Shown piece after piece: positions 1 through 49,271 of a stretch of 64,000 nucleotides of DNA. The translations under genes and the position numbers were made by a program. The DNA comes from an uncultured bacterium (GTDB lineage: Bacteria > Patescibacteriota > Dojkabacteria > J137): NCBI GenBank assembly GCA_963700155.1, contig OY969472.1:598431-662430 (forward strand). The letters are read 5' to 3'. The notes beneath the pieces are model-generated. The model searched no databases. It saw only the letters and a list, made by a program, of their open reading frames with translations, and was not told the DNA's origin. Positions within the stretch are counted from its first letter, which is position 1; each line of letters starts with the position of its first letter.

Positions 1-1599
1 TCAAAAGGATAATGGAATCTTGCATAGGGCATAGCCCCCGAATCATACCAAACATCTATTACATCAGGGATTCTTTTGTATTTTTCACCATCTATTTCAA
101 ACTCAATTTCATCGACAAAAGGTTTATGAGGATCATTTAATTCTGCTCCTGATAATTCTTTTAATTCTTTAAATGAGCCGATAACCATTACTTTCCCAGA
201 TTCTGACTTCCAGACAGGGAGAGGAGTTCCCCAATATCTTGATCTTGATATTCCCCAATCTTTTATTTCGGCTAACCAATTTCCAAATCTACCTTCTTTT
301 ACATGAGACGGAACCCAATTAATTTTTTCATTATTAGCTACTAATTTATCTCTTAATTGGCTCATTGATATGTACCAGGATGTAATAGGTTTATAGATCA
401 GTGGAGTATTAGTTCTCCAACACATTGGCATATCATGTTCATATTGTTCTTCTCTAAATAATCTATCTTTTTGTTTTAAATCTTCAATAATTTTAGGGTT
501 TGCATCTCTATAATTTAACCCAGCATAAGGCTGGATCTCGTCAGTAAAGTCTCCTTGATCATCAAGAACATCGAAACTTTTTATTCCAACTTTTTGAAAA
601 ATTTCATTATCCTCAGCTCCGTAAGGCGCCAAATGAACAATCCCTGTTCCTGAATCAGTTGCTACATAATCAGCATCATATATTTTGTGGGCATTTTCTC
701 GACCAATAAAAAAATCAAATGGAGGAACATATTCTTTTCCTATTAATTCTTCAGCCGAAATTTCACCAACAACTGTGAATGGATCTCCTTTAAATACATT
801 ATCCAAAAGATCTTTTGCAACAATATATGTATTTTCTGTATAGATCCTTTCACTTTTACATATTTAATATTTTTATTAATTAGCTAATCCTAGATTTGAG
901 GGAATAGTCCAAGGAGTTGTCGTCCAAGCTAATAATTATAGTTTTAGGATCTTCTTTTAATGGAAATTCAACAGTTATTGCAGGATCTATAAAAGGTTTG
1001 TATCCTCCTAAAGCTACTTCTGCATTAGATAAAGTTGTTCCTGCTCTAGTTGAATAAGGTACAACTTTGAATCCTTCATACAGTAGTCCTTTATTCATAA
1101 AGCTCTTTTAATGACCACCAGATAGATTCTATGTAATCTTTATCCATTGTTGCATATTCTTCTTCATCATTTGTTAATCTCCCCATCATTTCTTCTAGTT
1201 CCACAATTTGTGCTCTTTTATCAGTTACTAATTTTCTACATAGTTCATTGAACTTGGCAACTCCAAATTTTTCTATATCCTTTTTTTCTTTAAATCCTAA
1301 GTTTTTTTCAACTTCATACTCAACAGGTAATCCTTGGCAATCCCAGCCGATACTTCTTGAGTTACTCTAAATCCTTGCATAGTCCAATATCTTGGAATAA
1401 TGTCTTTTAGTGAGAATGTGAGTGCATGGCCTATATGAGGATCTCCATTTGCAGTAATTGGTCCATCATAAAAAGTTTTATTTTTATCATCAGGTCTTTG
1501 GTTAATTGATTTTTCAAGAATATTGCTTTCTTTCCAATATTTTAGTATTTCTTGTTCAAAAGAAAAAAAATCAGGTTTTCCTGAAGGTTTGCTAAACAT
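1..1599 (-). pseudogene. ileS: Isoleucyl-tRNA synthetase (ileS), N-terminal ~530 codons running off the window start; interrupted by at least five single-nucleotide A indels between ~845 and ~1365
   Basis: The minus-strand translation shows the HIGH-region 'DPHIGHAL...PRYWTMQGFRV', then 'RSIGWDCQGLPVEYEVEK', 'SIWWSLKELYE', 'KGLLYEGFKVVPY', 'WTTTPWTIPSNLGLA', and from ~845 down to 1 an uninterrupted 'ERIYTENTYIVAKDLL...DVWYDSGAMPYARFHYPF'. These are class I IleRS motifs. Consecutive pieces lie in different frames, and each junction can be repaired by one A insertion or deletion. Confidence 0.7.
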
Positions 1600-1631: not shown

Positions 1632-2087
1632 ATGCAATTTTACATTCAATGTAAGTTATATGCAATGTTGTATAATCAACCAAATAAATATTATTCCAAT
1701 AGTATGGACAAACATTTTAGAGTTGATGATGGATATAATAATACTATTACAAAAAAGAATGCATTAGTAGCTTTTATAACAATGTCTAGATGGGATTTAT
1801 GGCACTGTGAATATTTGATAAATTTTGCAAAAAATTTAGTTTCAGATTTCGATAAACTTAGCTATTTAGATGTAGGACTTTTTAATGATTTACCTGAAGT
1901 TAGGACGATATTAAATTTAAGATTGGAAGGAACAATAAAAGAAAGAGAATTAGAAGTAATGTCAGGGATAATATATATTGTATTTATGATTAAAAAAAAT
2001 ATTGAGAGAGAATCTATGATACAAAAACTAGAAAAAGTTCTTGAATACAAAGTATCTTTTTTTGATCCTAATTCTTATTTATATTAA
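1632..2087 (+). CDS. hypothetical protein (151 aa)
   Basis: ORF with no recognisable motif; it sits between ileS and the next ORF. Confidence 0.3.
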   Translation: MQFYIQCKLYAMLYNQPNKYYSNSMDKHFRVDDGYNNTITKKNALVAFITMSRWDLWHCEYLINFAKNLVSDFDKLSYLDVGLFNDLPEVRTILNLRLEGTIKERELEVMSGIIYIVFMIKKNIERESMIQKLEKVLEYKVSFFDPNSYLY

Positions 2088-2119
2088 TCATAAATATTCA
2101 AGAATCTTTAAACAAAAGA

Positions 2120-2455
2120 GTGACACTTGATAATTTAATAGTTTCTTATTTTATGTACGATATTCCCGAGAGTGAGAGAGAAGAAGTTCTAGATACATTA
2201 GTAAAAGATTTAGCGATATTAGTCAGACAAAGTGAAATATTCTCGCCTAAAGATCCATATAAACTCTATGGACTTTCTGAAATAATTGATATCCTAAATG
2301 TTGATTTGGGTAGTCAAGTTTCAGTTGAGACACAAATACGAAATAAAATTTTAGAAATGATAGATATAGTAAATAGTAAGGGGTATGGATATAAAACTAA
2401 AGTTGAGAATCTCCTCAAGTTAACAAAGTTTTTTACCCAAGCAAAATATTATTAA
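2120..2455 (+). CDS. hypothetical protein (111 aa)
   Basis: ORF only. Confidence 0.3.
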   Translation: MTLDNLIVSYFMYDIPESEREEVLDTLVKDLAILVRQSEIFSPKDPYKLYGLSEIIDILNVDLGSQVSVETQIRNKILEMIDIVNSKGYGYKTKVENLLKLTKFFTQAKYY

Positions 2456-2498
2456 TTAACGTCACAAACAGTCCTACGTTAGAATAATTAGGTTAACA

Positions 2499-3311
2499 GT
2501 GTATAATTGCAAAATGAATCCAATAACTGAAAAAATTTTAAATTCGAGAAAGTATAAAGATATCTATCCAAAAACAATCGAAAGAATAGTAAATGATTGT
2601 ATTAAAAGATATGGAGAAAAACGTGCAGAGAAAGAAGCGAAAGAGCTTATCCATCAAGTATGGGGAGCCTTCTATCGAAGTAGACCAGATTTCCAGAAAT
2701 TACTTGAAAAATTCTCTGCAGATGTTCCAGAAGATGATTATGATTTTGCAAATTTAAAACAGATAGATGATTTATTAAGAATACATTCTTCTACAGTAGA
2801 AAGAATGAAATTCATAGATGAATTTTATTCTAAAATATTTAAAATTACTGGGAAACCAAAGTCCATACAGGATATTGGTTGCGGATTTACTCCTCTGGGT
2901 ATTAAACATATGGGGATTTCAAAGAAAACTATGTATACCGCCTCTGATATTGATTTGGAGGAAATCCGCTTCTTGGCAAAAATATCTAAAATATTATTTC
3001 CGGACTATAATGTAAAATTTGAGGCTGCTGATGTTTTAGTGGATGATTTTGAATATGCTGATGTAGTATTTTTATTAAAAACTATTCCAATCTTAGAAAG
3101 ACAAGAAAAAAATGCTTCTGAAAATATTTTGGATAAGTTAAAGTATAAATATTTAGTTGTTAGTTTCCCTTTAAAAAGTTTATCTGGAAGAGAAGTGGGA
3201 ATGTCAAAATTTTATTCTGAGAACTTTGATGAGATTTTACAAAAAAAATCATTAGTTTATAAAAAATTAGAATTTACAAATGAACTTGTATATGTCATTA
3301 GTTCTGTATAA
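2499..3311 (+). CDS. FmrO/ArmA/RmtB-family 16S rRNA (guanine1405-N7)-methyltransferase homologue (aminoglycoside-resistance type)
   Basis: At 270 aa it matches the family in length. It is collinear with RmtB as I recall it. 'ILNSRKYKDIYPKTIERIV' aligns with 'ILASKKYRALCPDTVRRIL'. The SAM motif 'IQDIGCGFTPLGI' aligns with 'VLDIACGLNPLAL'. 'VFLLKTIPILERQEKNASENIL' aligns with 'IFKLLPLLEREQAGSAMALL'. 'YLVVSFPLKSLSGREVGMSKFYSENFD' aligns with 'RMAVSFPTRSLGGRGKGMEANYAAWFE'. The C-terminal 'ELVYVISSV' aligns with 'ELIYLIKKNG'. Confidence 0.6.
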   Translation: MYNCKMNPITEKILNSRKYKDIYPKTIERIVNDCIKRYGEKRAEKEAKELIHQVWGAFYRSRPDFQKLLEKFSADVPEDDYDFANLKQIDDLLRIHSSTVERMKFIDEFYSKIFKITGKPKSIQDIGCGFTPLGIKHMGISKKTMYTASDIDLEEIRFLAKISKILFPDYNVKFEAADVLVDDFEYADVVFLLKTIPILERQEKNASENILDKLKYKYLVVSFPLKSLSGREVGMSKFYSENFDEILQKKSLVYKKLEFTNELVYVISSV

Positions 3312-3349
3312 TGCTAATATAATAAATATTAGTTTTTAATTATTTACTA

Positions 3350-3604
3350 ATGGGTAAAGTTGAAGCAAATATGGATAGCTCTATCGATGTACAGAAGGTG
3401 TTAAAGTATATCCCAAGAGTTATTGCAGCATTATTCTTTGGAGGATTGGTTGTTTATCAAAATTATATTATATTTCATCTTTTGCAAACTACATTAGGTT
3501 GGGAAAACATTGGAGATATGCAGATAGTTCTGGCTGCAGCTGTTGCCTCAACTGTAATTGAGACATACTTAATTGCAAGAGAGATTGGAAAGTGGATGAG
3601 ATAG
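3350..3604 (+). CDS. small integral membrane protein (84 aa, two predicted TM helices)
   Basis: Hydrophobic segments 'VIAALFFGGLVVYQNYIIF' and 'IVLAAAVASTVIETYLIA'. Its stop is 1 nt before the fmt ATG. Confidence 0.35.
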   Translation: MGKVEANMDSSIDVQKVLKYIPRVIAALFFGGLVVYQNYIIFHLLQTTLGWENIGDMQIVLAAAVASTVIETYLIAREIGKWMR

Positions 3605-3605
3605 T

Positions 3606-4532
3606 ATGGACAAAATTAAGACGATTATTATTGGGACTTCTGAATTTGCTGTACCGATTTTAGAGGCGGCTTTAGCACATCCAATGCTTGAAGTTGCTGC
3701 AATTGTAACTCAACCTGATCGTCCTGCAGGCCGTGAACAAACGCTAAAGCCGTCTGCTGTAAAACAATTCCTTTTAGACAAAAAAAGTGAAATTACAATA
3801 ATTCAACCCGAAAAAATAAAAGATATTTCAGGCGAACTACTTGATGAATATGAACCTGAATTAATTATAGTAGCTTCTTATGGGCAGATAATTCCGAATA
3901 ATATTTTGGAATATCCAAAATATAAATGTCTAAATTTTCATGGTTCATTACTTCCAAAATTAAGAGGTGCTGTTCCAGTAAATATGGCAATTTTACTTGG
4001 ATTTGAGAAAACAGGAGTAACTTTACAGATTATGGCTGAAAAAATGGATGTTGGAGATATTATCTCAACTAGAGAATATATTTTAAAACCTGATGAAACG
4101 GCTGAATCTTTGATGGCTGAACTTTCAATGCTCTCAGTTGAAATCTTAAATCAAGATTTAGAGAAATGGATATTAGGTCAGATTCAGCCATCTGCTCAAG
4201 ATGAATCAGAAGCTACTTATTGTTATAGAGGTGATATTTCTAAAGATAAAGCAGAGATAAAATTTGAAACTGATATAGATTTAGCAGAGCGAATGATTAG
4301 AGCTTTTTATCCATGGCCGGTTGTCTGGTTTGAGCTTCCGGGAAAGGGAAGAGTAAAAATATTTAAAGCTAAAAAATCTGATATTCAAAGCCAGGCAACC
4401 GGCCTTCAATTAACAAAATCAGATAAAAAATTACTACTGAATCTTCAAAATGGTACTCTTGAACTTTTAGAACTTCAACTTGAAGGAAAGAAGAGGGATA
4501 GTGTAATTAATTATTACTTTCTTGTTAATTAA
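3606..4532 (+). CDS. fmt: methionyl-tRNA formyltransferase
   Basis: N-terminal formyltransferase fold with 'IIGTSEFAVPILEAAL', 'IVTQPDRPAGR' and 'NFHGSLLPKLRGAVPVNMAIL' (cf. E. coli SLLPRWRGAAPIQ), followed by the C-terminal Fmt domain. Length is 308 aa. Confidence 0.9.
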   Translation: MDKIKTIIIGTSEFAVPILEAALAHPMLEVAAIVTQPDRPAGREQTLKPSAVKQFLLDKKSEITIIQPEKIKDISGELLDEYEPELIIVASYGQIIPNNILEYPKYKCLNFHGSLLPKLRGAVPVNMAILLGFEKTGVTLQIMAEKMDVGDIISTREYILKPDETAESLMAELSMLSVEILNQDLEKWILGQIQPSAQDESEATYCYRGDISKDKAEIKFETDIDLAERMIRAFYPWPVVWFELPGKGRVKIFKAKKSDIQSQATGLQLTKSDKKLLLNLQNGTLELLELQLEGKKRDSVINYYFLVN

Positions 4533-11918: not shown

Positions 11919-11952
11919 CTTATAATCTCTTCGCAATATTAATAATTTTTGT

Positions 11953-12024
11953 TCCGGCTTAGCTCAGCGGTAGAGCGCTCGCCTGTTAAGCGATTGGTCG
12001 CTGGTTCGAATCCAGCAGCCGGAG
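11953..12024 (+). tRNA. tRNA-Asn (anticodon GUU)
   Basis: Manually folded cloverleaf. The acceptor TCCGGCT pairs with AGCCGGA. The D-arm is GCTC/GAGC. The anticodon stem is CTCGC/GCGAT with loop CTGTTAA. The T-arm is GCTGG-TTCGAAT-CCAGC. The discriminator is G, and CCA is not encoded. Confidence 0.85.
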
Positions 12025-12046
12025 ATTTAAATTCTTCAATTTAGAA

Positions 12047-15213: not shown

Positions 15214-18200
15214 TTACAAAAAGCTAAAGATGTCTTGTAACCCTTTCAAAACAATATCAAGTGCACTCTCAGATTTCTGAGGTGCAATAGTTACAATATT
15301 ATTAGTTTGCGATTCATTCTTACTACTATCATCAGATACAGCTCTTAAGTGATATACACCGGATGGTTTAAGATTAGAAACAATTACAACATGTTTAAGA
15401 CCTAAAGTTCTATCAATCTGAGTACTTTGACTGTAATCACCAGAAGAACCTTCACCAAATTCTACTTGACTTGTAGCAAGTTCATCAGTGGTCCAAGAAA
15501 CAATAACTTGAGCAGTAGAGTCTTGAGAATCAGGATTAACAGCTTCAACTTTAATGTTAGAGATAGCAGGAGGTCTAGTATCAGTCGCAGTAGTAAATGT
15601 ATGAACATCAGAAGTAGCTTGATTACCAATAGAATCTGTACCTTTTACTACAAGTGAGTACTTAGTATCAGTCGAAAGATTTTCAATAGTTAACTTATGA
15701 TCGGTTTTAGGTTCAATATCGATGACATTTTTAATAAGATCTGGATTATCAGCAGGATAGAATGAAACAATTGATGATATCTCAGTATTAGAAGACCAAG
15801 AGACATCAACAGTAGGTTGGGCAACATTCTTAACTTCTTGAATTTGTATATTACTTACAGTTGGTCTTGGTAATGTAGTTAGGTCTAAAATGGTACCTTG
15901 ATACTCGAATCCTTCAACATCTGTTGGATTAATTTTAAAGTAATATTTAGTTCCGTCATCTAAATTACTTAAAAGAGCAGTGTAAGAACTTTCAATAAAT
16001 GCAGTGTCAATAGTTTTCAATCCTCCAAAATCAGTTGATTTTCCATAATATACTTTTACAGATTTAGCATTAGTAACTGTAAAATTGATTAATGCTGAAT
16101 CAATTCCAACATTAGATGCATTTGCATTCTTAACTGTTGGTGCAGGATCTGTGGAGAAAGTTTTCTCTTCACTGATACCTGTATTCCCATCTTCATCAGT
16201 CCATTTAGCTCTGTAGTAGTAAGTTGTTCCAGCCGACAGATTATCAAGAGTAACAGTATGAGCAGTAACTTGAGCAGAAACAGCACTTTCAGCTTCAAGA
16301 TAATCATTAGATGAAAGTCCTATTTGAATTTTAGAGTCAGATCTTCTGTCTGTTACCCATGAGATAACTGCTTTTCTTGTAGTAGTAGCATTAACAGTAG
16401 GACCGGAGATTAAATCAGCAGGACTAGTATATTTACCTGTAGGATATTTAGTAACAGTACTAGAAACAGCAGAGCAATTGTTTGCAGAGTCACATGCTTT
16501 TATGCAGTAATAGTAATCTTGTTGTGATAGTCCTGTATCAATATATGATGTTCCTAATACTGTACTGATTTTTGAGAAGTCTCCAAAACTGACACTACAA
16601 GAAGCACTGGTAGTAGTAGATCTATATACATCGTAATTAGAAACTCCTGCACCAACATTAGAAGGAGTGGTCCAAGTTAAAGCTAATTTCCAATCAGAAG
16701 TATCTTTATTAGAGATATCAGCAACATCAGGGTTCAAAGGAATACCAGGTGCTTGTCCGGAATAGGTAAATGTAATAGATGTATATGTACTGTAATTGAT
16801 ATTCCCAGCCTCATCTTTAGCAACTACATAGAAAGTATTAGTGTCAGGTTGATTAGCGAATGCGTCTGCTGATAAACTTGTTACACCTGCGCTAGTATAT
16901 GTACAAGTGTTTACGCTAGGTAAGGTATTAATTGTATAGCAGTATGTTAGGTTGCTAACACTACCAGTAAAAGTTCCTGGAGGATCCCAGTCAAAAGCAT
17001 AAGAATTAGTAGTATTATCACTTGGTGTAACACTTAAGTTTTGTGGTTCACTAGGTGCATTAGTGTTAATTTTTAGTACTCCTGAGATACTTGATGTAGA
17101 AATATTCCCAGCTAAGTCTAATGTTCTAAAGTAAATGATGTTGTTACCATCAGAAAGGTTAGGATAATCATAAGTAGGATCAGTAGTATAGGTGCCGTCA
17201 TTAACAAGTCGGTCAGTTAAATCTTGATTACCATTATGTAAATCTCCATACCATGTACCTCCACTTCCAATTCTGTATTGTAAACCTGCTAAACCGGCAC
17301 CAACATCAGTAGCTTCATTACCTCCAGTTGTTGGCCAAGTGATAGTGGCATCTTTAGTAGAGATAAAGTTAGATGGCATAGAGATAAAGTCAGGGTTCTC
17401 TGGAGGTGTATTATCAAATTTGAATGAAATTAAATCCTGGTAAAGATTAGAAGCACCACTCCAAATATTACCGGTAACATCAACAGCTTTGATAGAGAAG
17501 TAGTATTGTTTACCTGTTGTTAGAGTCAATCCAGAGATACTACTTAAGTCAACGTGATCCCCTGTAGCAATGTAATCACAATAACTTTCACTTACACCAT
17601 CATCAAGACCATGGAGGATACCTCCACTAGTAGCAGGGTTAACACTGCTAGAGTTACCAGGAGTAGCTTCGTCAAGTGAAATACAATATCCTAACAACCC
17701 ACTTCCACCAACATTGTCGTTACCTTCGGTCCAGTTAATTTGAGGTTTAGACTTGACCCAGTCACCGTCATTAACTCCTGAGATATTAATACTTGTGGCA
17801 TTTTGTGTTGGTAAGGTTGTATCATAAGTTAAGTCTAAAGATACATCTGAAAGAACAGGAGTATTCTGTCCACCAGAACTTAGGAATGATTTAAATGCAA
17901 AATATTTACTAGAAGGACTAAAGCTAGAGATATTAGTGTTAATATCAGAAGCAATATTGGAATTAGCACTTGAACTAGCGTTACTCCAAGCAGCACCATC
18001 CCAGTATTTCCAAGTATTATTTGAATTACAATTAGAAACAGTATCACCACATATTTGATAATATATCTCACTTCCTGCAGGTTTAGTAGAAGTAGTAGTA
18101 CAGTTACTACTACCATCTAAAGTACCTTCACAGAAGTGATCAATCGATTGTGGCCTAGATGTTAGATCTAAAGAGTTAGTAGAACTAACTGATGGTTTAT

Positions 18201-18440
18201 CAACAGGATAATTTTGATAAGTAAATGTATTACTTGATATTTTAGGTAAGTAACTAGAATTATCAGTTTCAAGAATAGTTTTGTATTGAAAATATTGATT
18301 ATTAGAAACGTTACTTAAAGCAAAAGTAGGTAAGTCAGTAGAAGTATTATTAGCATCAGAATAATATGTATTGGAAGTCCCATCAGGACCGATAAATGAC
18401 TCTCCAGAGCAAGCATTATCATCACATGATCTAACCTGGT
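15214..18440. repeat. ~3.2-kb near-identical direct repeat, copy 1 (3' two-thirds of paralogue A)
   Basis: Nucleotide stretches from 15214 to ~18440 are almost identical to 20217 to ~23445. The encoded proteins run from 'KYQVRSCDDNACSGESFIGPDG...' to the C-terminus with only scattered substitutions. Confidence 0.8.
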
Positions 18441-20196
18441 ATTTTACATTTTGGAGACCTCTTTTATAAATAGTATTAATTTCAGTTGGAGAAAGACTTT
18501 TATTGAAGATAGAGAATTCGTCCATAAATCCTTTAAATTTAGATGATGGACTGCCTGAGTATAGTGCTCCAATTTCCATTTTATTTTGTGTTATTGATCC
18601 AAAGGTGGTAGAAACTGTTGAAGCTGCAACACCATTTACATATGTAGTTAAATTATTCCCATTACGAACTCCTACTACATAATACCATTTTCCTGCTTCA
18701 ATAATATTGGAGTAAGTTGATCCTACTATATGACTAGCATCATCTCTAACTAAAAACGTTATGTCATTATTACCTGTAGCGAATTGAAATAATACGGCTG
18801 AACCGGCTGTAGTAGTTCGATAAGCACCGATCGTGTATGAAACAGACACTGAGTCTACATTTATCCAAGCTGATACAGAATAATTTGTTCCCAGAGTTGT
18901 TCCAGGGTAGGGATCATTAAGTTCAATATAGCTATTGCCATCAAAGTATTCTGAGTAACTACCTAATTTATAGACTAAATTAGAAAATTGGGATGAGCCT
19001 ACAATAGTACCATTTTTGCTATTGCCACTTGAATCATTTGCATTCCCGTCAAAGTGCCAAAGCCCCTGATTGTTCGACATATCAACATTATCTGTACTAT
19101 ATTGAGTTTCAATTCCTTTATTATCTGGCAAATTCTTCCCGTAAGGAGCATTTGGTAACCAATTAATATTTTGCCAAGTTGTCCCATCAGAAACAGATGT
19201 ATCAAAAACTTTTGAAGTATATTCCCCATACAGACCTGCACCTTTTTCATAATTTGTTTTAATTTCACTTGCAGACAAGGCAGTAGAGTATATCGTTGTA
19301 TCGTCTAGAGCTCCGACAAAATATCCATGCCCCCCAGAAGGATCAATAGAAATACTTTTCCAATTAAAATATCGTAAGTTACCAGATGAAGATCCATTCT
19401 TAATATACTCACCATTTAGATATAGTGATATTGTATTATTATTATTGACAACGGTAACAAAATTCCATCCAGAAAGAGTAGTGCTATAAACTAAATTATA
19501 AGGCATTAACCCAGATTTTTGCTCACATAATGTAATCCCATTAGTCCCAACATTGATTCCTAATCCGGTTCCACCTGTAACATAGTGGGGATAGAATATA
19601 GTTCTATTAGATGTTAAATTTGAAAAGCATTCAACCCCACTTCCACTTTGAGATCCAAGATGAGTAGTTGATTCAGGTTTAACCCATGTACTTATTGTAA
19701 ATGTTGTACTACTAATTTCCCCATCAGGAACATCTACATAACTAGTGTTGTCAAAATGTCCAGCTGTTCCTATCTGTCCTGTTGTAAATATTGCTCCATA
19801 AGATGTACCATTATAATTACCTAATTCATCATTCCAGTTATTCTCAAATCTCCACTGTGCAACAACCCCCGGATCGTTTGAAGGGGTAGAAGCTGGTGTA
19901 TTACTTAAAGTTAAATTACCAGAAGAATATTGAGTATTATTGTATGTACCTAAATCATATTTAGCTTGAGAATCATCAGTAATATCAGTTTGAACTTGTT
20001 TTAAAGAAGCTTCACCTCCAGTTACTTGAATCTTATTGGAATCAGATAAAGTATAGTCTGAAGGTGTAGAAAAATCCCAGGTGAAGCTGGTTGATGCAAA
20101 TAATTTAGTACCTATAAAAATTATAGGTATGCTAACCAGAACAATAATAATAAAGACTTCTTTTTTTTCAATTTTCTTAATTCTAAATTTTTTCAT
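15214..20196 (-). CDS. giant surface protein, paralogue A (1660 aa): signal anchor, LamG/ConA-like lectin modules, Cys-rich linkers, multiple Fn3/PKD-like domains
   Basis: N-terminus 'MKKFRIKKIEKKEVFIIIVLVSIPIIF' with one TM. The conserved module 'FASTSFTWDFSTPSDYTLSDSNKIQVTGGEASLKQVQT' follows. Two LamG-like modules are present (e.g. 'NYSVSAWINVDSV...YVVGVRNGNNLTTYVNG'). Repeated ~95-aa beta modules such as 'TSPADLISGPTVNATTTRKAVISWVTDRRSDSKIQIGL...TTYYYRAKWTDEDGNTG' follow. The C-terminus is 'ALDIVLKGLQDIFSFL'. Confidence 0.7.
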   Translation of the reverse strand: MKKFRIKKIEKKEVFIIIVLVSIPIIFIGTKLFASTSFTWDFSTPSDYTLSDSNKIQVTGGEASLKQVQTDITDDSQAKYDLGTYNNTQYSSGNLTLSNTPASTPSNDPGVVAQWRFENNWNDELGNYNGTSYGAIFTTGQIGTAGHFDNTSYVDVPDGEISSTTFTISTWVKPESTTHLGSQSGSGVECFSNLTSNRTIFYPHYVTGGTGLGINVGTNGITLCEQKSGLMPYNLVYSTTLSGWNFVTVVNNNNTISLYLNGEYIKNGSSSGNLRYFNWKSISIDPSGGHGYFVGALDDTTIYSTALSASEIKTNYEKGAGLYGEYTSKVFDTSVSDGTTWQNINWLPNAPYGKNLPDNKGIETQYSTDNVDMSNNQGLWHFDGNANDSSGNSKNGTIVGSSQFSNLVYKLGSYSEYFDGNSYIELNDPYPGTTLGTNYSVSAWINVDSVSVSYTIGAYRTTTAGSAVLFQFATGNNDITFLVRDDASHIVGSTYSNIIEAGKWYYVVGVRNGNNLTTYVNGVAASTVSTTFGSITQNKMEIGALYSGSPSSKFKGFMDEFSIFNKSLSPTEINTIYKRGLQNVKYQVRSCDDNACSGESFIGPDGTSNTYYSDANNTSTDLPTFALSNVSNNQYFQYKTILETDNSSYLPKISSNTFTYQNYPVDKPSVSSTNSLDLTSRPQSIDHFCEGTLDGSSNCTTTSTKPAGSEIYYQICGDTVSNCNSNNTWKYWDGAAWSNASSSANSNIASDINTNISSFSPSSKYFAFKSFLSSGGQNTPVLSDVSLDLTYDTTLPTQNATSINISGVNDGDWVKSKPQINWTEGNDNVGGSGLLGYCISLDEATPGNSSSVNPATSGGILHGLDDGVSESYCDYIATGDHVDLSSISGLTLTTGKQYYFSIKAVDVTGNIWSGASNLYQDLISFKFDNTPPENPDFISMPSNFISTKDATITWPTTGGNEATDVGAGLAGLQYRIGSGGTWYGDLHNGNQDLTDRLVNDGTYTTDPTYDYPNLSDGNNIIYFRTLDLAGNISTSSISGVLKINTNAPSEPQNLSVTPSDNTTNSYAFDWDPPGTFTGSVSNLTYCYTINTLPSVNTCTYTSAGVTSLSADAFANQPDTNTFYVVAKDEAGNINYSTYTSITFTYSGQAPGIPLNPDVADISNKDTSDWKLALTWTTPSNVGAGVSNYDVYRSTTTSASCSVSFGDFSKISTVLGTSYIDTGLSQQDYYYCIKACDSANNCSAVSSTVTKYPTGKYTSPADLISGPTVNATTTRKAVISWVTDRRSDSKIQIGLSSNDYLEAESAVSAQVTAHTVTLDNLSAGTTYYYRAKWTDEDGNTGISEEKTFSTDPAPTVKNANASNVGIDSALINFTVTNAKSVKVYYGKSTDFGGLKTIDTAFIESSYTALLSNLDDGTKYYFKINPTDVEGFEYQGTILDLTTLPRPTVSNIQIQEVKNVAQPTVDVSWSSNTEISSIVSFYPADNPDLIKNVIDIEPKTDHKLTIENLSTDTKYSLVVKGTDSIGNQATSDVHTFTTATDTRPPAISNIKVEAVNPDSQDSTAQVIVSWTTDELATSQVEFGEGSSGDYSQSTQIDRTLGLKHVVIVSNLKPSGVYHLRAVSDDSSKNESQTNNIVTIAPQKSESALDIVLKGLQDIFSFL

Positions 20197-20216
20197 TAAT
20201 TTCTACCCATACTTGA

Positions 20217-23200
20217 TTACAAAAAGCTAAAGATATCTTGTAAACCTTTCAATACAATATCGAGTGCACTCTCAGATTTCTGAGGAGCGATAGTTACAAT
20301 ATTATTAGTTTGCGATTCATTTTTACTACTATCATCAGATACAGCTCTTAAGTGATAAACACCAGATGGTTTAAGATTAGAAACAATAACAACATGTTTA
20401 AGACCTAAAGTTCTATCAACTTGAGTACTTTGACTGTAATCACCAGAAGAACCTTCACCAAATTCAACTTGACTTGTAGCAAGTTCATCAGTAGTCCAAG
20501 AAACAATAACTTGAGCAGTAGAATCTTGAGAATCAGGATTAACAGCTTCAACTTTAATGTTAGAGATAGCAGGAGGTCTAGTATCAGTAGCAGTAGTAAA
20601 TGTATGAACATCAGAAGTAGCTTGATTACCAATAGAATCTGTCCCTTTAACTACTAAGGAATATTTAGTATCTGCTAAGAGACTAGTAACTTCAAGTTTA
20701 TGCTCGGTTTTAGGTTCAATATCGATAACATTTTTAACAAGATCAGGCTGATCAACAGGATAGAATGAAACAATTGATGATATCTCAGTATTAGAAGACC
20801 AAGAGACATCAACAGTAGGTTGAGCTACATTCTTAACTTCTTGAATTTGTATATTACTTACAGTAGGTCTTGGTAATGTAGTTAAGTCTAAAATAGTCCC
20901 TTGATATTCGAATCCTTCAACATCTGTTGGATTAATTTTAAAGTAATATTTAGTGCCGTCATCTAAGTTAGTCAATAATGTAGTATATGAGCTTTCGATA
21001 AATGCAGTGTCAATTGTCTTTAATCCTCCAAAATCTGTTGATTTCCCATAATATACTTTTACAGATTTAGCATTAGTAACTGTAAAATTGATTAATGCTG
21101 AATCAATTCCAACATTAGATGCATTTGCATTCTTAACTGTTGGTGCAGGATCAGTTGAGAAAGTTTTCTCTTCACTAATACCTGTATTCCCATCTTCATC
21201 AGTCCATTTAGCTCTGTAGTAGTAAGTTGTTCCAGCAGATAAATTATCAAGAGTAACAGTATGAGCAGTAACTTGAGCAGAAACAGCACTTTCAGCTTCA
21301 AGATAATCATTAGATGCAAGTCCTATTTGAATTTTAGAGTCAGATCTTCTGTCTGTTACCCAAGAGATAACTGCTTTTCTTGTGGTAGTAGCATTAACAG
21401 TAGGACCGGAGATTAAATCAGCAGGACTGGTATATTTACCTGTAGGATATTTAGTAACAGTACTAGAAACAGCTGAGCAATTGTTAGCAGAGTCACATGC
21501 TTTGACACAATAGTAATAGTCTTGTTGGATAAGTCCAGTATCAATATATGAGGTACCTAATACTGTACTGATCTTGGAGAAGTCTCCAAAACTGGCACTA
21601 CAAGAAGCACTAGAAGTAGTAGATCTGTAAACATCATAACTAGAAACTCCAGCACCAACATTACTTGGAGTAGTCCAAGTTAAAGCTAATTTCCAATCAG
21701 AAGTATCTTTATTCGAAATATCAGCAACATCAGGATTCAATGGAATACCTGGTGCTTCTCCAGAATAGGTAAAAGTAATAGATGTATAGGTACTGTAATT
21801 AATATTTCCGGCTTCATCTTTAGCGACTACATAGAAAGTATTAGTATCAGGTTGATTAGCAAATGCATCTGCTGAAAGTGAGGTTACTCCTGCAGATAGT
21901 ATACGTGCAAGTAGTGCTACTAGGTAGAGTATTAATTGTATAACAGTATGTTAAGTTCCTAACACTACCGGTAAAAGTTCCAGGAGGATCCCAGTCAAAA
22001 GCATAAGAATTAGTAGTATTATCACTTGGTGTAACACTTAAGTTTTGTGGTTCACTAGGTGCATTAGTATTAATCTTTAAAACTCCACTAATACTTGATG
22101 TAGAAATATTCCCAGCTAAGTCTAATGTTCTAAAGTAAATGATGTTGTTACCATCAGAAAGGTTAGGATAATCATAAGTAGGATCAGTAGTATAGGTGCC
22201 GTCATTAACAAGTCGGTCAGTTAAATCTTGATTACCATTATGTAAATCTCCATACCATGTACCTCCACTGATCCAATTTTGTACTGCAATCCAGCTAAAC
22301 CAGCTCCAACATCAGTAGCTTCATTACCTCCGGTTGTTGGCCAAGTGATAGTAGCATCTTTAGTAGAGATAAAGTTAGATGGCATTGAGATAAAGTCAGG
22401 GTTCTCTGGAGGTGTATTATCAAATTTGAATGAAATTAAATCCTGGTAAAGATTAGAAGCACCACTCCAAATATTACCGGTAACATCAACAGCTTTGATA
22501 GAGAAGTAGTATTGTTTACCTGTTGTTAGAGTCAAACCAGAGATACTACTTAAGTCAACGTGATCACCAGTAGCAATGTAGTCACAATAACTTTCAGTAA
22601 CACCATCATCTAAACCATGGAGAATTCCACCACTAGTAGCAGGGTTAACACTGTTAGAGTTACCAGGAGTAGATTCATCAAGTGAAATACAATAACCTAA
22701 CAAACCACTTCCTCCAACATTATCATTACCTTCAGTCCAATTAATTTGAGGTTTAGACTTAATCCAATCACCATCATTAACTCCAGAGATATTAATGCTA
22801 GTAGCATTCTGTGTTGGTAAAGTTGTGTCGTATGTTAAGTCTAAAGATACATCTGTCAGAACAGGAGTATTCTGACCACTAGAACTTAAGAATGATTTAA
22901 ATGCAAAATATTTACTAGAAGGACTAAAGCTAGAGATATTAGTGTTAATATCAGAAGCAATATTAGAATTAGCACTTGAACTAGCATTACTCCAAGCAGC
23001 ACCATCCCAATACTTCCAGGTATTATTACTATCACAATTAGAGACAGTATCACCACAAATTTGATAATATATCTCACTTCCAGCAGGTTTAGTAGAAGTC
23101 GTAGTACAGTTACTACTACCATCTAAAGTACCTTCACAGAAGTGATCAATAGATTGTGGTCTTGATGTTAAATCTAAAGAGTTAGTAGAACTAACTGATG

Positions 23201-23445
23201 GTTTATCAACAGGATAATTTTGATAAGTAAAAGTATTACTTGAAATTTTAGGTAAGTAACTAGAATTATCAGTTTCAAGAATAGTTTTGTATTGAAAATA
23301 TTGATTATTAGAAACGTTACTTAAGGCGAAAGTTGGTAAATCAGTAGATGTATTATTAGCATCAGAGTAGTAAGTATTAGAGGTTCCATCAGGTCCGATG
23401 AAGGATTCACCTGAACAAGCATTGTCATCACAAGAACGTACCTGA
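20217..23445. repeat. ~3.2-kb near-identical direct repeat, copy 2 (3' two-thirds of paralogue B)
   Basis: See copy 1. Identity extends through the conserved C-terminus 'ALDIVLKGLQDIFSFL'. Confidence 0.8.
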
Positions 23446-25157
23446 TATTTTACATCATTTATTCCACGTTTGTATAAGGAGCCCACTTCAGAATTAGTTA
23501 AGACATGGTTAAAAATTGCTAATTCATCCATTCCACCAGTCCAGTACTGTGAATTACCTCCTCCTAAAGACATAGTTTGTATTGCCGGAGCAGTCAGTGC
23601 GGTAGTGTTAGTTCCTAGCTTGGTACCATTTTCATAGATGTTATAAACATCATTATTAAAATCCCAATCGATAGCAACATGAATCCAGGTATTTGCGGCA
23701 AATGCAATAGGGCCAGTTATTGCTCTATAGTTCAAATTAATATAAGAATAAAATCCTGAAGCAACACTATAAGATAATTGTATACCAGAAGTTGTTGTTC
23801 CCCACTGAAAAATAGGGTTATATGTTGTTGGTGGAGAGCTTGAGTTAAAACTTGGTTTCAACCATACACTTAATGTTCCTGTATTAACATTAAATCCTGT
23901 ATTTCCTAAAGTTATATAATCACCACTCCCATCAAAATAAGCACCATTACTACCAAATTTTGCAGTCGATGATGGTGTTGAATTCCCGGATGGACTTGCT
24001 GTATTATTTTGTCCACTAGAATCATTCCAATTTCCATTAAAATGCCAAAGTCCAATATTTCCACTCATATCTACATTATCTTCAGAATATTGTGTTTCAG
24101 CAGCTGCATTATTTGGAAGTTCTTTCCCATAGGGAGAATTTGGTACCCAATTAACATTTTGCCAAGTAACCCCATCTGTTATCGAAGTATTGAAAACTTT
24201 TGAAGAATACTCACCATAATGTCCAACATTTTTAAGGTAATTTTCCTTAATTTGTGTATCTGTTAATACAGTATTATATACAATTACTTCGTCTGCTGAT
24301 CCTGCTGTCCCATGTGCACCTGAAAGACTTCCTATTGCAAAAGGTGCGTTATTTGTTACTCCATTACTTATTACATCAGTATCTTCGAGGTTACCATCAA
24401 AATATAATTTCTGTGTATTTGTTGCCGCATTAAATGTACATATAACATAATGCCAATTCCCGTCAGTGATTGTAGATGTTGATGTTGAATATGCATCTGG
24501 GGCATAACAACTAACCTTATTTGCTGTAGGATAATTTGTTGTAATGAAAGAACCATTTGGACTACCAGCTAAGTGCTTTGAAATAGGGATACCTTGAGTT
24601 GTTATCGTGGTTTTTATCCAGCCACCATATGATCTATCATAATCTCCAAACTCAATTTGTGAATATTCCGGGATTGTAACGTAGTTTGTTCCAGAGAAGG
24701 AAAGTGCATTTCCTACTTTACCTGTTGTCCATGTAGGTGAACCAACAAGTGTCCCGTTATGCCCCAATCCGCTAGAATCACTTGCAGTGGTTCCTGACCC
24801 ATCGTCTAGTTTCCAAAACCCTACTAAGCCACTATCAGGCGCAGTTATATGCTGAGATGTATTTCCTAATGTTAAATTACCAGAAGAATAAAGTGTGTTT
24901 GAATATGTACCTAAATCAAATTCAGATTGAGAGTTATCAGTGATATTAGTTTGAACTTGTTTTAAAGAAGCTTCACCTCCAGTAACTTGAATCTTATTAC
25001 TGTCCGATAAAGTGTAATCAGATGGAGTAGAGAAATCCCAAGTGAAGCTAGTGGATGCAAAAAGTTTAGCAGTAATAAAAATTATTGGAATACTTATTAA
25101 AATTACTATGATTAATATTTCTTTTTTTTGAATTTTTCTAGATTTAAATCTTTTCAT
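20217..25157 (-). pseudogene. giant surface protein, paralogue B; reading frame broken by two single-nucleotide insertions (near 22275 and 21905), splitting it into 22221..25157, a middle piece, and 20217..21740
   Basis: Piece 22221..25157 (978 aa) has the same N-terminal module as A but different LamG cassettes. Piece 20217..21740 (507 aa) is ~97% identical to the C-terminus of A. In between, B has 'ggatcagtggagg' where A has 'ggaagtggagg', and 'gcagatagtatac' where A has 'gcgctagtatat'. Each is a 1-nt insertion that shifts the frame, and a TAA follows in the shifted frame. Confidence 0.6.
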
Positions 25158-25169
25158 TATATATTTTAA

Positions 25170-28100
25170 TTACAAAAAGCTGAAAATATCTTGCAAACCT
25201 CTTAAGACAATATCTAATGCATTCTCGGATCTCTGAGGAGTAATAGTAACAATATTATTGCTTAAGGTTTCGTTTTTGCTACCATCTTCTGAAACTGCTT
25301 CTAAGTGATATACACTTGATGGTTTCAGGTTTGAGATAATGACTACATGCTTTAAGCTCAAACTTCTATCAATTTGAGTCCCTTGAGCGAAGGAACCTCC
25401 GGTTCCTTCGCCATAAAGAACTTGACTTGTTGCTAGCTCATCTGTAGTCCAAGACACTACAATTTGAGCAGTAGAATCTTGAGAATCAGGATTCACAGCT
25501 TCAATTTTTATATTAGAAATTTCTGGTGGTCTTGTATCTGTTGCTGTAGTAAAAGTATGAACTTCTGAAGTCGCTTCATTGCCGATAGCATCTGTACCTT
25601 TAACAACAAGTGAGTATTTAGTGTCGGCATTTAAAGTTGCAACCTCAAGCTTGTGATCAGTTTTCAAATCAAGATCAATAACATTTTTTACAAGGTCAGG
25701 ATTATCAGCTGGATAGAATGAAACAATAGATGATATATCTGTATTTGATGACCAGGTTACATCAATTGTAGGTTGAGCAACATTCTTAACTTCTTGAATT
25801 TGTATATTACTTACAGTTGGTCTAGGAAGAGTAGTGAAATCCAGAACAGTTCCTTGATATTCTGTACCTTCTGTGTCGGTTGGATTAATTTTGAAATAAT
25901 ATTTCACACCATCAGTTAACTCTGTTAATACAGCAGTATAAGAACTTTCAATAAATGCAGTATCTAGTTCCTGTACTGCTCCAAATCCTGTAGTTTTACC
26001 ATAATATATTTTTACTAAGTTAGCATTATTACTTGTAAATTTAATTAAAGCTGAATCAATTCCAACGTTTGTAACTTTAACATTTGTAATAACAGGAGGT
26101 GGATCGGTAGTGAATGATTTTTCTCCACTTGTGCCAGTATTTCCATCTTCATCAGTCCACTTGACTATATAGTAATATGTAGTACCAGCCTTAAGATTAT
26201 TGAGTGTTACTGTATGTGCAGTGACCTGAGCGGAAATACCGACTTCTTCTTCAAAGTAATCACCAGAGGATAAACCATATTGAATTTTAGAGTCGGATCT
26301 TCTATCTGTTACCCACGAGATAACTCCCTTTGTAGTAGTTTTTGCATTTAATGAAGGGCCTGAGATCAGATCGGCAGGACTAGTATATTTCCCTGTAGGA
26401 TATTTAGTAACTGTACTGGATACTGCAGAACAGTTGTTAGCAGAGTCACATGCCTTCACACAATAGTAATAGTCCTGTTGGCTAAGTCCTGAATCAACAT
26501 AAGATGTTCCTAATACTGTACTAACTTTATTAAAGTCACCAAAATCAGAACTACAAGAAGCACTAGCAGTTGTAGATCTATATACATCATAATTAGAAAC
26601 TCCAGCTCCAACATTACTTGGGGTAGACCAAGTTACAGCTAATTTCCATTCTGAAGTATCCTTATTGGAGATATCTGCAACATCGGGATTTAAAGGAATC
26701 CCTGGAGCTTCACCTGAATAAGTAAAGGTAATTGATATATTGGTACTATAATTAATATTCCCAGCTTCGTCTTTAGCAACAACATAGAAAGTATTGGTGT
26801 CAGGCTGGTTAGCAAATGCATCGGCTGATAAACTTGTTACACCCGCACTAGTATATGTACAAGTAGTTGAGCTTGGCAAGGTGTTAACAGTATAACAATA
26901 TGTTATCGCTGAAACACTTCCTGTGTAAGTTGCCGGAGGATCCCAATCAAATGCGTATGAGTTGGCGGTGTTATCAGAAGGTGTTACACTTAAGTTTTGT
27001 GGTTCACTAGGAGCAGTTGTATTGACTTTTAATAAACCATTTACCGTTGAACTGGAAACATTTCCTGCAAGGTCCAATGTTCTGAAATATATAATATTGT
27101 TTCCATCAGATAGGTTAGGGTAATCATAAGTGGGGTCAGTAGTATATGTACCATCATTAACAAGAAGATCCATTAAATCTTCACTCCCAGTATGTAAATC
27201 TCCATACCATGTACCTCCAGAACCAATCTTATATTGTAATCCATCTAAACCAGCACCAACATCGTTAGCAGCATTACTATCACCAACAGGCCAAGTAATA
27301 GTTGCGTCTTTAGTAGAGATAAAGTTAGACGGCATAGAGATAAATGTAGGATTAGTAGGAGGGGTATTGTCATATCTAAATGATATTAAATCTTGATAAT
27401 CTCCTGATGATCCACTCCAAATATTACCGACGACATCAACAGCTTTAATAGAGAAGTAGTATTGTTTACCTGTTGTTAAAGTAAGTCCTGGAATACTACT
27501 AAGGTCAACATGATCTCCTGTAGCAATAAAGTCACAATAAGTGTCTGTTACTCCATCATCAAGACCATGAAGAATGCCAGCACTAGTAGCAGGGTTAATA
27601 CTACTGGAGTTATCAGGTTCAGCTTCATCTAAGGCAATGCAATATCCAAGGATTCCACTTCCATTAACATTATCATCACCTTCAGTCCAGTTGATTGTTG
27701 GTTTAGATTTGACCCAGTCACCATCATTTACATCTGAAATATTTATACTGGTGGCATTCTGTATAGGTGCAGTTGTATCATAAGTTACATCAAGTGACAC
27801 ATCAGAGAGTACTGGTGTATTTTGACCACCGGAGCTTAAGAAAGATTTAAATGAAAAGAACTTACTAGAAGGACGAAAGATAGAAATATTAGTATTAATT
27901 GTACTTGCAGTATTAGAGTTAGAACTTGAGCTTGCATTGCTCCAAGCAGCACCATCCCAATACTTCCAAGTATTATTAGAATTACAATTAGAAACAGTAT
28001 CGCTACATACTTGATAATATAGTTCGGTATTTGTAGGCTTAGTAGAAGTAGTAGTACAGTTACTACTTCCATCTAAAGTACCTTCACAGAAATGATCGAT

Positions 28101-29591
28101 AGATTGAGGTCTGTATGTTAAATCCATAGAAGTAGTAGGATTAACTGTTGGTTTATCAACAGGATAATTCTGATAAGTAAATGTATTACTAGAAATTTTT
28201 GGTAAATAACTTGCATTACCACTTTCTAGAGTAGCTTTATATTGAAAGTATTGATTACGGGTTAAAGATGATATATCGAAAGTGGCAGGTGAATTTGTCG
28301 TGTTATGGATTTCATCATAGTAACTACTTGAAGTTCCATCAGGACCAATAAAACTTTCGCCAGAACATGCATTATCATCGCATGATCTAATCTGGTATTT
28401 TACATTTTGAATTCCACGTTTATAAATATTAAGAATTTCAGTGTCCGATAAAATTCTGTTCCAAACAGCCACATCTTCAATTTGACCCTTGAAGTTGTTT
28501 AAGTAAGCATGAGAATATTGATTGTATACAGTACCTATAAGAAAACTAGAATAATATGCATTTAAAGTCTCAGTTCTTGAATTCTCTAGTTGTCCGTTTA
28601 CATATATATATCCATATCCTGTTGTACCATTACGGACACCAGTTATTAAGTACCAAACACCTGGTGTTAATGTGGTAGTTGACACAACTGAAGATCCATT
28701 ACTGCAGCCTGAAGGAAGTATGTCCATCCCAGCTTTACCAGTACTTCCTATGTTTATACCATATCCATACCAACAACTTATTGAGTCTGCTGCTTCCTTG
28801 CCTGCTATTGCCATAGTAGTCCCAATTTGTGTAATTTTTACCCATGCAGAAATAGTAAAGGTACTTATTCCTAATGACCCTCCATCACTTACTGTTCCAT
28901 AGTCACCGTTGCCATCTAGGTCTAATACCTTAGTTGGCCTATCTGAGTTTACAAATGCAGCATTCCCGCTGAGAGTTACCGAATGATTGTATCCGCTTGA
29001 ATCACTTGTATTATTCATATGCCATAAGCCAAGATTCCCGGTCATATCGATATTACCAGTTGAGTATCCTGATTCAGTTGCATGATTATTAGGCAATTCT
29101 TTTCCATAAGGTAACTCTGCACTCCAATTAAAGTTTTGCCACGCTACGCCATCTATGGCTGATGTGTCATATATTTTTGAGGTATAACTTCCTGATAGTG
29201 ACAAACTATCCAAGGTTAAATGCCCAGAAGAGTATTGAGTATTATTATATGTTCCTAAATCGAATTCAGATTGTGAATCATCAGTTGTATTTGTCTGTAT
29301 TTGTTGTAAAGATACATTTCCACCTGTGATTTGCATCTTGTTGCTGTCAGATAATGTGTAATCCGAAGGAGTAGAAAAATTCCATGAAAAACTAGTAGAG
29401 GCAAATAATTTTATATAAATTACAGGAATAATTAAGATAGCTATAAAAATAACAGTCAAAACGACATATGCTTTCCTGACCTTGTTTAAAGGATTTTTTT
29501 TGCCTAAATTTGTATGTAACATCTTCTTTAACATAATATATAGGTTTCCCCTATAAATCAACATAGATAATAAGGATAAATGAAAAATCAA
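25170..29591 (-). CDS. giant surface protein, paralogue C (1473 aa as listed; the true start is probably the internal Met near 29531)
   Basis: Same architecture as A and B but ~75-80% identical. It has the N-terminal 'LFASTSFSWNFSTPSDYTLSDSNKMQITGG' module, a LamG-like module, the 'KYQIRSCDDNACSGESFIGPDG' Cys linker, Fn3-like repeats and the C-terminus 'ALDIVLRGLQDIFSFL'. Confidence 0.7.
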   Translation of the reverse strand: MIFHLSLLSMLIYRGNLYIMLKKMLHTNLGKKNPLNKVRKAYVVLTVIFIAILIIPVIYIKLFASTSFSWNFSTPSDYTLSDSNKMQITGGNVSLQQIQTNTTDDSQSEFDLGTYNNTQYSSGHLTLDSLSLSGSYTSKIYDTSAIDGVAWQNFNWSAELPYGKELPNNHATESGYSTGNIDMTGNLGLWHMNNTSDSSGYNHSVTLSGNAAFVNSDRPTKVLDLDGNGDYGTVSDGGSLGISTFTISAWVKITQIGTTMAIAGKEAADSISCWYGYGINIGSTGKAGMDILPSGCSNGSSVVSTTTLTPGVWYLITGVRNGTTGYGYIYVNGQLENSRTETLNAYYSSFLIGTVYNQYSHAYLNNFKGQIEDVAVWNRILSDTEILNIYKRGIQNVKYQIRSCDDNACSGESFIGPDGTSSSYYDEIHNTTNSPATFDISSLTRNQYFQYKATLESGNASYLPKISSNTFTYQNYPVDKPTVNPTTSMDLTYRPQSIDHFCEGTLDGSSNCTTTSTKPTNTELYYQVCSDTVSNCNSNNTWKYWDGAAWSNASSSSNSNTASTINTNISIFRPSSKFFSFKSFLSSGGQNTPVLSDVSLDVTYDTTAPIQNATSINISDVNDGDWVKSKPTINWTEGDDNVNGSGILGYCIALDEAEPDNSSSINPATSAGILHGLDDGVTDTYCDFIATGDHVDLSSIPGLTLTTGKQYYFSIKAVDVVGNIWSGSSGDYQDLISFRYDNTPPTNPTFISMPSNFISTKDATITWPVGDSNAANDVGAGLDGLQYKIGSGGTWYGDLHTGSEDLMDLLVNDGTYTTDPTYDYPNLSDGNNIIYFRTLDLAGNVSSSTVNGLLKVNTTAPSEPQNLSVTPSDNTANSYAFDWDPPATYTGSVSAITYCYTVNTLPSSTTCTYTSAGVTSLSADAFANQPDTNTFYVVAKDEAGNINYSTNISITFTYSGEAPGIPLNPDVADISNKDTSEWKLAVTWSTPSNVGAGVSNYDVYRSTTASASCSSDFGDFNKVSTVLGTSYVDSGLSQQDYYYCVKACDSANNCSAVSSTVTKYPTGKYTSPADLISGPSLNAKTTTKGVISWVTDRRSDSKIQYGLSSGDYFEEEVGISAQVTAHTVTLNNLKAGTTYYYIVKWTDEDGNTGTSGEKSFTTDPPPVITNVKVTNVGIDSALIKFTSNNANLVKIYYGKTTGFGAVQELDTAFIESSYTAVLTELTDGVKYYFKINPTDTEGTEYQGTVLDFTTLPRPTVSNIQIQEVKNVAQPTIDVTWSSNTDISSIVSFYPADNPDLVKNVIDLDLKTDHKLEVATLNADTKYSLVVKGTDAIGNEATSEVHTFTTATDTRPPEISNIKIEAVNPDSQDSTAQIVVSWTTDELATSQVLYGEGTGGSFAQGTQIDRSLSLKHVVIISNLKPSSVYHLEAVSEDGSKNETLSNNIVTITPQRSENALDIVLRGLQDIFSFL

Positions 29592-34200: not shown

Positions 34201-34655
34201 GGGGATGTTTATTCGACAGTGAATTGCGGGTTTTAAAGCAAGTCAGAAGTTTATTAATTTCTTCTGTAAATCTCAAATTAATCGTTCCGTAAGGAATGTT
34301 TTGACAATAAACGTCAATAAAATTTCTAATGCATTTAACAGTGCTGTAAATGCTGTAGCTAGAGCTTTTGCTCCCAACTACAACTTATTTGTAGCCTAAG
34401 TTATTTGCAGTAGCTCGAATACAAAAGTAGAGCTACCGTTTGATTTTTCTTCTCTCGATGAGAAACTTCAGGCGAAACAAAGTCGGGATACAAGAAAAGT
34501 TTTTTAATTTATGAAACTTTTCCCAAGTTTAAAATAAATTCGGCATAAGTTTGTTTTTCTAGTTTTTAGAATTTATGCTGTAAAGAAAATTAGATAAACT
34601 TGTAAAACTTTAAGATTTTATATTTGCTGGACAGGGGTTTCCCTCATCTCCACCA
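34201..34655 (+). ncRNA. ssrA: tmRNA (ssrA)
   Basis: The 5' end GGGGATGTTTATTCGACAGTGAATTGCGGG parallels E. coli GGGGCUGAUUCUGGAUUCGACGGGAUUUGCG. The 5' GGGGATG pairs with 3' CATCTCC, including the G3:U70 wobble (Ala identity), and is followed by an encoded ACCA. An internal reading frame GCT..AAC TAC AAC TTA TTT GTA GCC TAA gives the tag '...(A)PNYNLFVA' (cf. ANDENYALAA). The T-arm looks unusually compact. Confidence 0.75.
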
Positions 34656-48908: not shown

Positions 48909-49271
48909 GTGAAAAAATTAAAAGGAACAATATTAACTTTACTAGTTGTTTATATAGGTTATCCTGCAATTGTATTTGCACAAAATGTTGGGCAAGTAAC
49001 AATACCAAATCCCTCAGGTTATAATAGTCTTGAAGAATTGATTAATGCAGGATTAAGTTTATTGAGACCACTTTTTATAGTTACTTTTGCGGCAATGATT
49101 ATGTATGGAGCTTGGACTTGGTTAACTTCACAAGGAGATGCAGAAAAGATTGGAAGAGCTCGAAAAATAATCATTGCCGCAGTCATAGGTTTTGCAATTG
49201 CTGTATTGGCACCATCTATAGCCGGAATTGTTGCAAACTTTATTAAATTACAAGGATTTAATGGAATATAA
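48909..49271 (+). CDS. small secreted two-helix hairpin protein, paralogue 1 (VirB2/TrbC-like topology; candidate pilin)
   Basis: Signal peptide 'MKKLKGTILTLLVVYIGYPAIVFA', then 'FAAMIMYGAWTWLTSQGDAEKIGRARKIIIAAVIGFAIAVLAPSIAGIV'. This is a TM, a short charged loop, and a second TM. Confidence 0.45.
   Translation: MKKLKGTILTLLVVYIGYPAIVFAQNVGQVTIPNPSGYNSLEELINAGLSLLRPLFIVTFAAMIMYGAWTWLTSQGDAEKIGRARKIIIAAVIGFAIAVLAPSIAGIVANFIKLQGFNGI

Follow-up and report, generated by a model that had tools for sequence, protein, structure and literature searches.

The gene for isoleucyl-tRNA synthetase (IleRS) at the start of the 64-kb window, by which we mean the whole stretch of DNA analysed here, has no single uninterrupted reading frame as deposited. 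This raises the question of whether an essential gene has truly been broken in this bacterium or whether the break belongs to the sequence on record.

Reading frame of ileS and its annotation in the public record

Three-frame translation placed ileS on the minus strand, with its ATG at 1599 and its reading frames extending past the window edge at position 1. The homologous frame was traced by translation, by tblastn with the nearest full-length relative (L029) as query, and by a 15-sequence alignment of the repaired IleRS and 14 homologues, for which a dummy residue was set at each frame junction. It changes five times (f0 to f2 to f0 to f1 to f2 to f1), and all three approaches bear out the five changes of frame read from the sequence in the original prediction. 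The alignment divides the gene as follows.

1-1599, minus strand: visible part of ileS (type-2 isoleucyl-tRNA synthetase), with ~1.37 kb more beyond the window start
1363-1599, minus strand: segment 1, frame f0, M1 to V79, including the PHIGH motif
1094-1360, minus strand: segment 2, frame f2, SRSIGWDCQGLP...WWSLKELYE, stopping at TAA 1091-1093
937-1092, minus strand: segment 3, frame f0, KGLLYEGFKVVPYSTRAGTTLSNAEV...EDPKTI
882-935, minus strand: segment 4, frame f1, LLAWTTTPWTIPSNLGLA
848-880, minus strand: segment 5, frame f2, INKNIKYVKVK
1-845, minus strand: segment 6, frame f1, open as far as the window edge (728 open codons in the record, P0018)

On the deposited contig (1,140,724 bp) ileS is called as two proteins, P0240 (100 aa, an N-terminal stub) and P0018 (728 aa, the C-terminal part); the breaks are therefore present in the public record itself. 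Three of the lesion positions first proposed (~1362, ~878 and ~850) agreed with our mapping, whereas those at ~1120 and ~925 were off by ~27 and ~11 nt and really lie at ~1093 and ~936. The last two shifts, at most about 50 nt apart, do compensate each other as had been claimed, and frame f1 between them contains the three expected TAA codons (N, stop, stop, K, Y, stop).

Identity and genomic context of the interrupted gene

By sequence comparison, the broken ileS is itself a type-2 gene, the naturally mupirocin-tolerant kind. The repaired 531-aa product aligned to the Thermus thermophilus structure in one stretch (residues 4-531 against residues 3-533 of 1ILE_A). Scores against PDB entries were 508 bits for T. 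thermophilus 1ILE, 476 bits for 8C9D and 445-474 bits for eukaryotic cytoplasmic IleRS, and 224 bits for both the type-1 enzyme of Staphylococcus aureus (1FFY) and 8C9E. The class I motifs are shared between the pieces, with PHIGH in segment 1 and KLSKS in P0018. The latter, encoded on the same contig, ends in a C-terminal DUF5915 domain (PF19302, precomputed Pfam assignment), its C-terminus lying outside the window. In DUF5915, HIGH, KLSKS and best bit scores the gene thus resembles T. thermophilus IleRS (1ILE) and a 1032-aa bacterial IleRS (8C8U/8C9D); it differs from them in being broken five times, such that no enzyme could be made from it as written.

Genes for Fmt, an AI-2E transporter, a C39-like protein and an acyltransferase surround ileS both here and in relatives. 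Because its position beside fmt, AI-2E and the C39-like gene is conserved (shared with L001, L002, L003, L004, L016, L023 and L029), the broken ileS is the lineage's own essential copy. Its nearest IleRS relatives were Dojkabacteria MAG proteins of 70-75 % identity. The earlier idea that a second, type-2 or mupirocin-insensitive ileS might exist elsewhere found no support, given that the broken gene is of type 2 itself and occupies the conserved fmt/AI-2E position. Pfam scans of the 56 ORFs in the window revealed no second ileS, and no genome with two ileS loci was present among the fetched loci.

Divergent IleRS of ~40 % identity were seen in two other Dojkabacteria loci (L022 and L024). The L024 gene (8621-12628) encodes a 1336-aa protein with large in-frame insertions, as does that of L022, and inside the L024 synthetase one of the insertions, at residues 683-847, matched His_Phos_1, a family of histidine phosphatases (8e-19). 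Large in-frame insertions also characterized the IleRS of L037, L038, L042 and L043.

The interval between ileS and fmt differed from that of the relatives, in which fmt directly adjoins ileS.

1632-3604, plus strand: FmrO methyltransferase and three hypothetical ORFs between ileS and fmt, absent from the ileS-fmt interval of relatives

Their absence from that interval in the relatives marks these genes as a lineage-specific 2-kb insertion. A nearby methyltransferase gene of the aminoglycoside-resistance type had been pointed out previously, and a predicted full-length FmrO-family gene is indeed located at 2499-3311, its product matching positions 2-255 of the 255-position PF07091 profile (156 bits, gathering cut-off 27; 1.3e-45). 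FmrO acts on 16S rRNA and not on IleRS. The proposed connection between this gene and the ileS lesions had proximity as its sole support, and nothing ties the 2-kb insertion functionally to IleRS.

Placement of the individual ileS lesions

The five lesions, designated L1 to L5 in the direction of the gene, were placed as follows.

1358-1365, minus strand: L1, two surplus nucleotides (1361-1362) separating GTA (V) from TCA (S); more parsimoniously +2 than -1
1090-1096, minus strand: L2, one surplus nucleotide in GAA-T-AAA (+1) at ~1093-1096, placed with 14 homologues
933-939, minus strand: L3, one surplus nucleotide in ATA-A-TTA (+1) at ~933-936, placed with 14 homologues
879-884, minus strand: L4, one surplus nucleotide in GCT-A-ATT (+1) at ~881, placed with 14 homologues
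828-848, minus strand: L5, -1 (possibly A5 to A4 in CAGAAAATACA) or +2 (GGA-TC-TAT), placed with 14 homologues

The dummy residues at L1 to L4 fell opposite a gap in all 14 homologues, which at L2, L3 and L4 points to a single surplus nucleotide. At L1 a +2 change is the simplest reading, since V-x-RS[LIM]GWD is found there in 14/14 homologues and a -1 change would need a residue present in none of them. Directly after L4, frame f1 meets TAA TAA. L5 is placed to the range 828-848, where the encoded loop varies in length among homologues. Each lesion had been described as a 1-nt insertion or deletion of A. An extra A is compatible with L2 to L4, but an extra T fits equally well at L2 and L4; overall, a single-A change is possible at four sites, disfavoured at L1, where +2 is favoured, and not demonstrable.

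Homopolymer-length sequencing error, defined as affecting runs of at least five identical bases, does not fit L1 to L4. These all lie in runs of three bases or fewer, L1 at a site without any homopolymer, and L5 may be a change from A5 to A4. Nearby, A7 runs at 1281-1287 and 1302-1308 (segment 2) and an A8 run at 1563-1570 read correctly in frame. No convincing sequence or methylation motif was shared across the lesions. GATC is confined to L5 and the +2 site of a surface-protein gene described below. Insertion of 'TC' is proven at 22270 alone, L1 and L5 being further possible cases.

Clustering of the lesions and conservation of the affected patch

The clustering of lesions in ileS is non-random: all five fall within 518 nt of the ~2950-nt gene (scan-statistic P ~0.004) and are thus limited to 17 % of its length. 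Once repaired, the patch (residues 80-262) matched the homologues in 69/69 invariant columns and in 81/81 columns conserved at >=90 %, leaving 0/81 changed. Identity to relatives was as high inside the patch (74-84 %) as outside it, and the 728 codons that follow the lesions are open (P0018). Two further candidate causes were tried and rejected. The composition of the patch is not anomalous (31.7 % GC against 31.8 % for the window), and mis-polishing through a repeat of the patch was set aside as it has no second occurrence within the 64-kb window.

A second lesion cluster in tandem surface-protein genes

The remaining ~62 kb had been described as reading cleanly. A codon-usage frame scan nonetheless flagged 21,750-22,230, which falls within one of three tandem genes for surface proteins (15214-29591).

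15214-20196, minus strand: paralogue of the split gene, 1660 aa
20217-25157, minus strand: split surface-protein gene, ~1650 aa, in ORFs 22221-25157 and 20217-21740
25170-29591, minus strand: paralogue of the split gene, 1473 aa

The split gene is represented by a 978-aa and a 507-aa ORF with Laminin_G_3, Pur_ac_phosph_N and fn3 domains, and fusing the two gave a Pfam domain order colinear with that of the paralogue. Read in another frame, the 125 aa between the ORFs matched residues 978-1101 of the 1660-aa paralogue at 98 % identity and the 1473-aa paralogue at 84 %. DNA alignment identified two lesions that are absent from both paralogues, a +2 'TC' at 22270-22271 and a +1 at ~21895. With this frameshift pair the claim of a clean remainder no longer holds, and the window contains seven frame-breaking indels in total, in two clusters.

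The 15214-20196 and 20217-25157 genes share 92 % nucleotide identity over 3.2 kb. This identity is patchy, ranging from 0 to 24 mismatches per 100 nt, a pattern that suggests gene conversion or consensus mixing. Each of the two lesions sits where mismatches to the paralogue switch between 0-2 and 8-23 per 100 nt, and lesions at such switch points would be expected from consensus flipping between copies.

Quality of the rest of the window and searches for independent sequence

The window has 31.8 % GC and is 93 % coding. Pfam scans of its other ORFs showed full-length domains for the housekeeping genes, including those of fmt, YceG, RuvX, YidC, L25, GroES/GroEL, ClpP and SmpB. Independent sequence was available from two Logan contigs of run ERR11571143 (L046 and L049), which were reached through genes neighbouring ileS and together match 11.2 kb of the window, differing from it by 4 SNPs and no indel. 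L046 was identical over 3.8 kb; L049 displayed 0 indels and all four SNPs (38092, 39766, 39796 and 42375) over 7.4 kb. These data indicate that the assembly is clean elsewhere and that the population is microdiverse.

Logan contig coverage breaks at 1607, 8 nt short of the start codon of ileS. This is not specific evidence concerning ileS, because the contigs are only 3.8-7.4 kb long and several other genes are missing too. The ERR11571143 contigs yielded no gene call for the ileS 5' region (845-1606), and no exact products of the ileS fragments were on record in Logan, ENA or NCBI assemblies. Searches for ileS from an independent member of the same species returned best matches of 65 % amino acid identity in the GTDB genome scan and 74 % in the JGI metagenome scan. 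In the protein-database search, short 100 %-identical IleRS fragments came only from the record's own P0018 and P0240.

Broken ileS genes in other public assemblies

Broken ileS genes were present in 3/47 other loci with an IleRS match (L033, L047 and L048). The most informative was L048 (GCA_048500195.1, JASNYL010000019.1), a Dojkabacteria MAG with a +1 'C' at 4424 and in-frame +6/-3 indels at 4495-4510, ~70-85 nt downstream of the +1 and all within 90 nt. Its break falls at the SLKELY|KGLLY junction, where L2 also lies. L029 and L001 belong to the same species as L048 (98 % nucleotide identity), and their ileS is intact. In L047 (ERZ17986947 NODE_4207, coverage 4.96) ileS is ~11 nt short at GWDCQGI|PVEYE (~2990-3000), and the L033 gene changes frame near residue 312. 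A further IleRS, P0241, carries a frameshift after SLKE, at the same junction as L2.

Origin of the ileS lesions

We regard the ileS lesions as probably a local consensus or assembly artefact and not a biological feature, with a probability of roughly 0.7. The gene would then be a type-2 ileS at a single locus, native to a Candidatus Dojkabacteria (WS6/CPR) MAG, and its five indels in 828-1365 would be faults of the deposited consensus. Their presumed source is the assembly process, through local mis-assembly or mis-polishing in a population with strain microdiversity rather than through mutations in a living cell, and the cell would make a normal full-length IleRS. A consensus fault is favoured because the second cluster affects a repeated gene at paralogue switch points, because the population is microdiverse, and because broken ileS genes have a base rate in other assemblies. 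Tight clustering together with correct A7/A8 runs points to a local fault and not to a genome-wide base-calling bias. A localized low-quality patch was one alternative raised in the original prediction, and it is the one to be preferred, given that no conserved column is replaced, that the lesions occupy a small part of the gene, that a second cluster exists in the window, and that other assemblies contain breaks, one of them contradicted by the same species.

Indel errors that split genes are familiar from metagenome-assembled and long-read genomes, and IDEEL-type length-ratio checks were built for them. The present case is alike in that an essential single-copy gene survives in perfectly conserved pieces, the locus is otherwise normal, and comparable breaks occur elsewhere (L033, L047 and L048), with that of L048 absent from same-species assemblies. 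It is unlike them in having five lesions in 518 nt, mostly non-homopolymer insertions, alongside correct A7/A8 runs. Four or five of the lesions being of this kind, and the nearby A7/A8 runs being correct, argue against a consensus fault: such an insertion-rich, non-homopolymer spectrum is not the usual residue of nanopore or Illumina consensus errors.

The same spectrum, atypical of common platform errors, speaks for a real and recent inactivation of the native type-2 ileS, with IleRS supplied by a second gene (e.g. of type 1) elsewhere in the 1.14-Mb genome or by the host of this presumed episymbiont. The indels are, after all, present in the deposited sequence, the locus has been remodelled by a lineage-specific 2-kb insertion (FmrO and three ORFs) that abuts the 5' end of ileS, and the divergent IleRS of L022 and L024 exist in other Dojkabacteria. 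We nevertheless consider such inactivation unlikely. With none of the 81 conserved columns replaced and 728 codons open, it would require that the five hits all occurred extremely recently and only within 17 % of the gene. Neither a second IleRS in the 64-kb window nor a genome with two ileS loci among those fetched was found, and the L048-type break is absent from two assemblies of its own species. More broadly, that the indels are real in the DNA of the cell, the broken native ileS being covered by a second ileS, by host supply or by recoding, strikes us as quite improbable.

Gradual decay of a dispensable ileS into a pseudogene, for which the several frameshifts and in-frame stops might be cited, is effectively excluded as a neutral process on the evidence of the sequence, and we give it a very small chance in any form. 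Neutral pseudogene decay generally produces more substitutions than indels, with lesions spread along the gene; indels without replacements therefore fit it poorly. Here there are no substitutions at conserved sites, the lesions are clustered in 518 of ~2950 nt, HIGH and KLSKS are intact, and the position of ileS is syntenic. With gradual decay set aside, either the indels are real and arose in a burst very recently, or the consensus is at fault.

Decoding of the frame changes by programmed ribosomal frameshifting, transcriptional slippage or insertion/deletion RNA editing has a negligible chance of being correct: at L2 and L4 a +1 shift directly at a TAA codon would yield the homologous protein, but L1, L3 and L5 lie away from stops, none of the five sites has a slippery heptamer, an SD-like stimulator or a long poly(A) run, the shift directions are mixed, no site is shifted in the 14 aligned homologues or ~40 related loci, and like lesions occur in an unrelated surface-protein gene. 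In Buchnera and Blochmannia, poly(A)-tract frameshifts in reduced endosymbiont genomes are rescued by transcriptional slippage. That system shares with the present one a reduced, AT-rich genome, a host-dependent bacterium and a frameshifted essential gene. It differs in that long A runs are absent from all five sites here, A4-A5 at L5 being the longest candidate, and the A7/A8 runs are in frame.

Implications for the genome record

The main value of these results is as a quality flag on the genome record. If the lesions are artefactual, local frame-breaking errors of the consensus would affect at least two patches of a public 1.14-Mb Dojkabacteria genome, one essential gene would be mis-annotated as two fragments, and metabolic or essential-gene conclusions from this record, for instance that IleRS is missing or pseudogenized in CPR, would be wrong. 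If they are real, an episymbiont that has lost a native aminoacyl-tRNA synthetase would deserve attention; none of the present findings leads in that direction.

Other features of the window

Several further features lie on the plus strand.

11952-12025, plus strand: tRNA-Asn(GTT)
34201-34655, plus strand: tmRNA (Rfam, 53 bits)
48909-49271, plus strand: T4SS_pilin ORF
51709-52488, plus strand: T4SS_pilin ORF
59874-60329, plus strand: SmpB
61018-63462, plus strand: ORF of 814 aa, weakly matching a TrwB-type coupling protein

The tmRNA, SmpB and tRNA-Asn genes all look intact. The two T4SS_pilin ORFs and the TrwB-like ORF may represent a type IV secretion or conjugation-like cluster.
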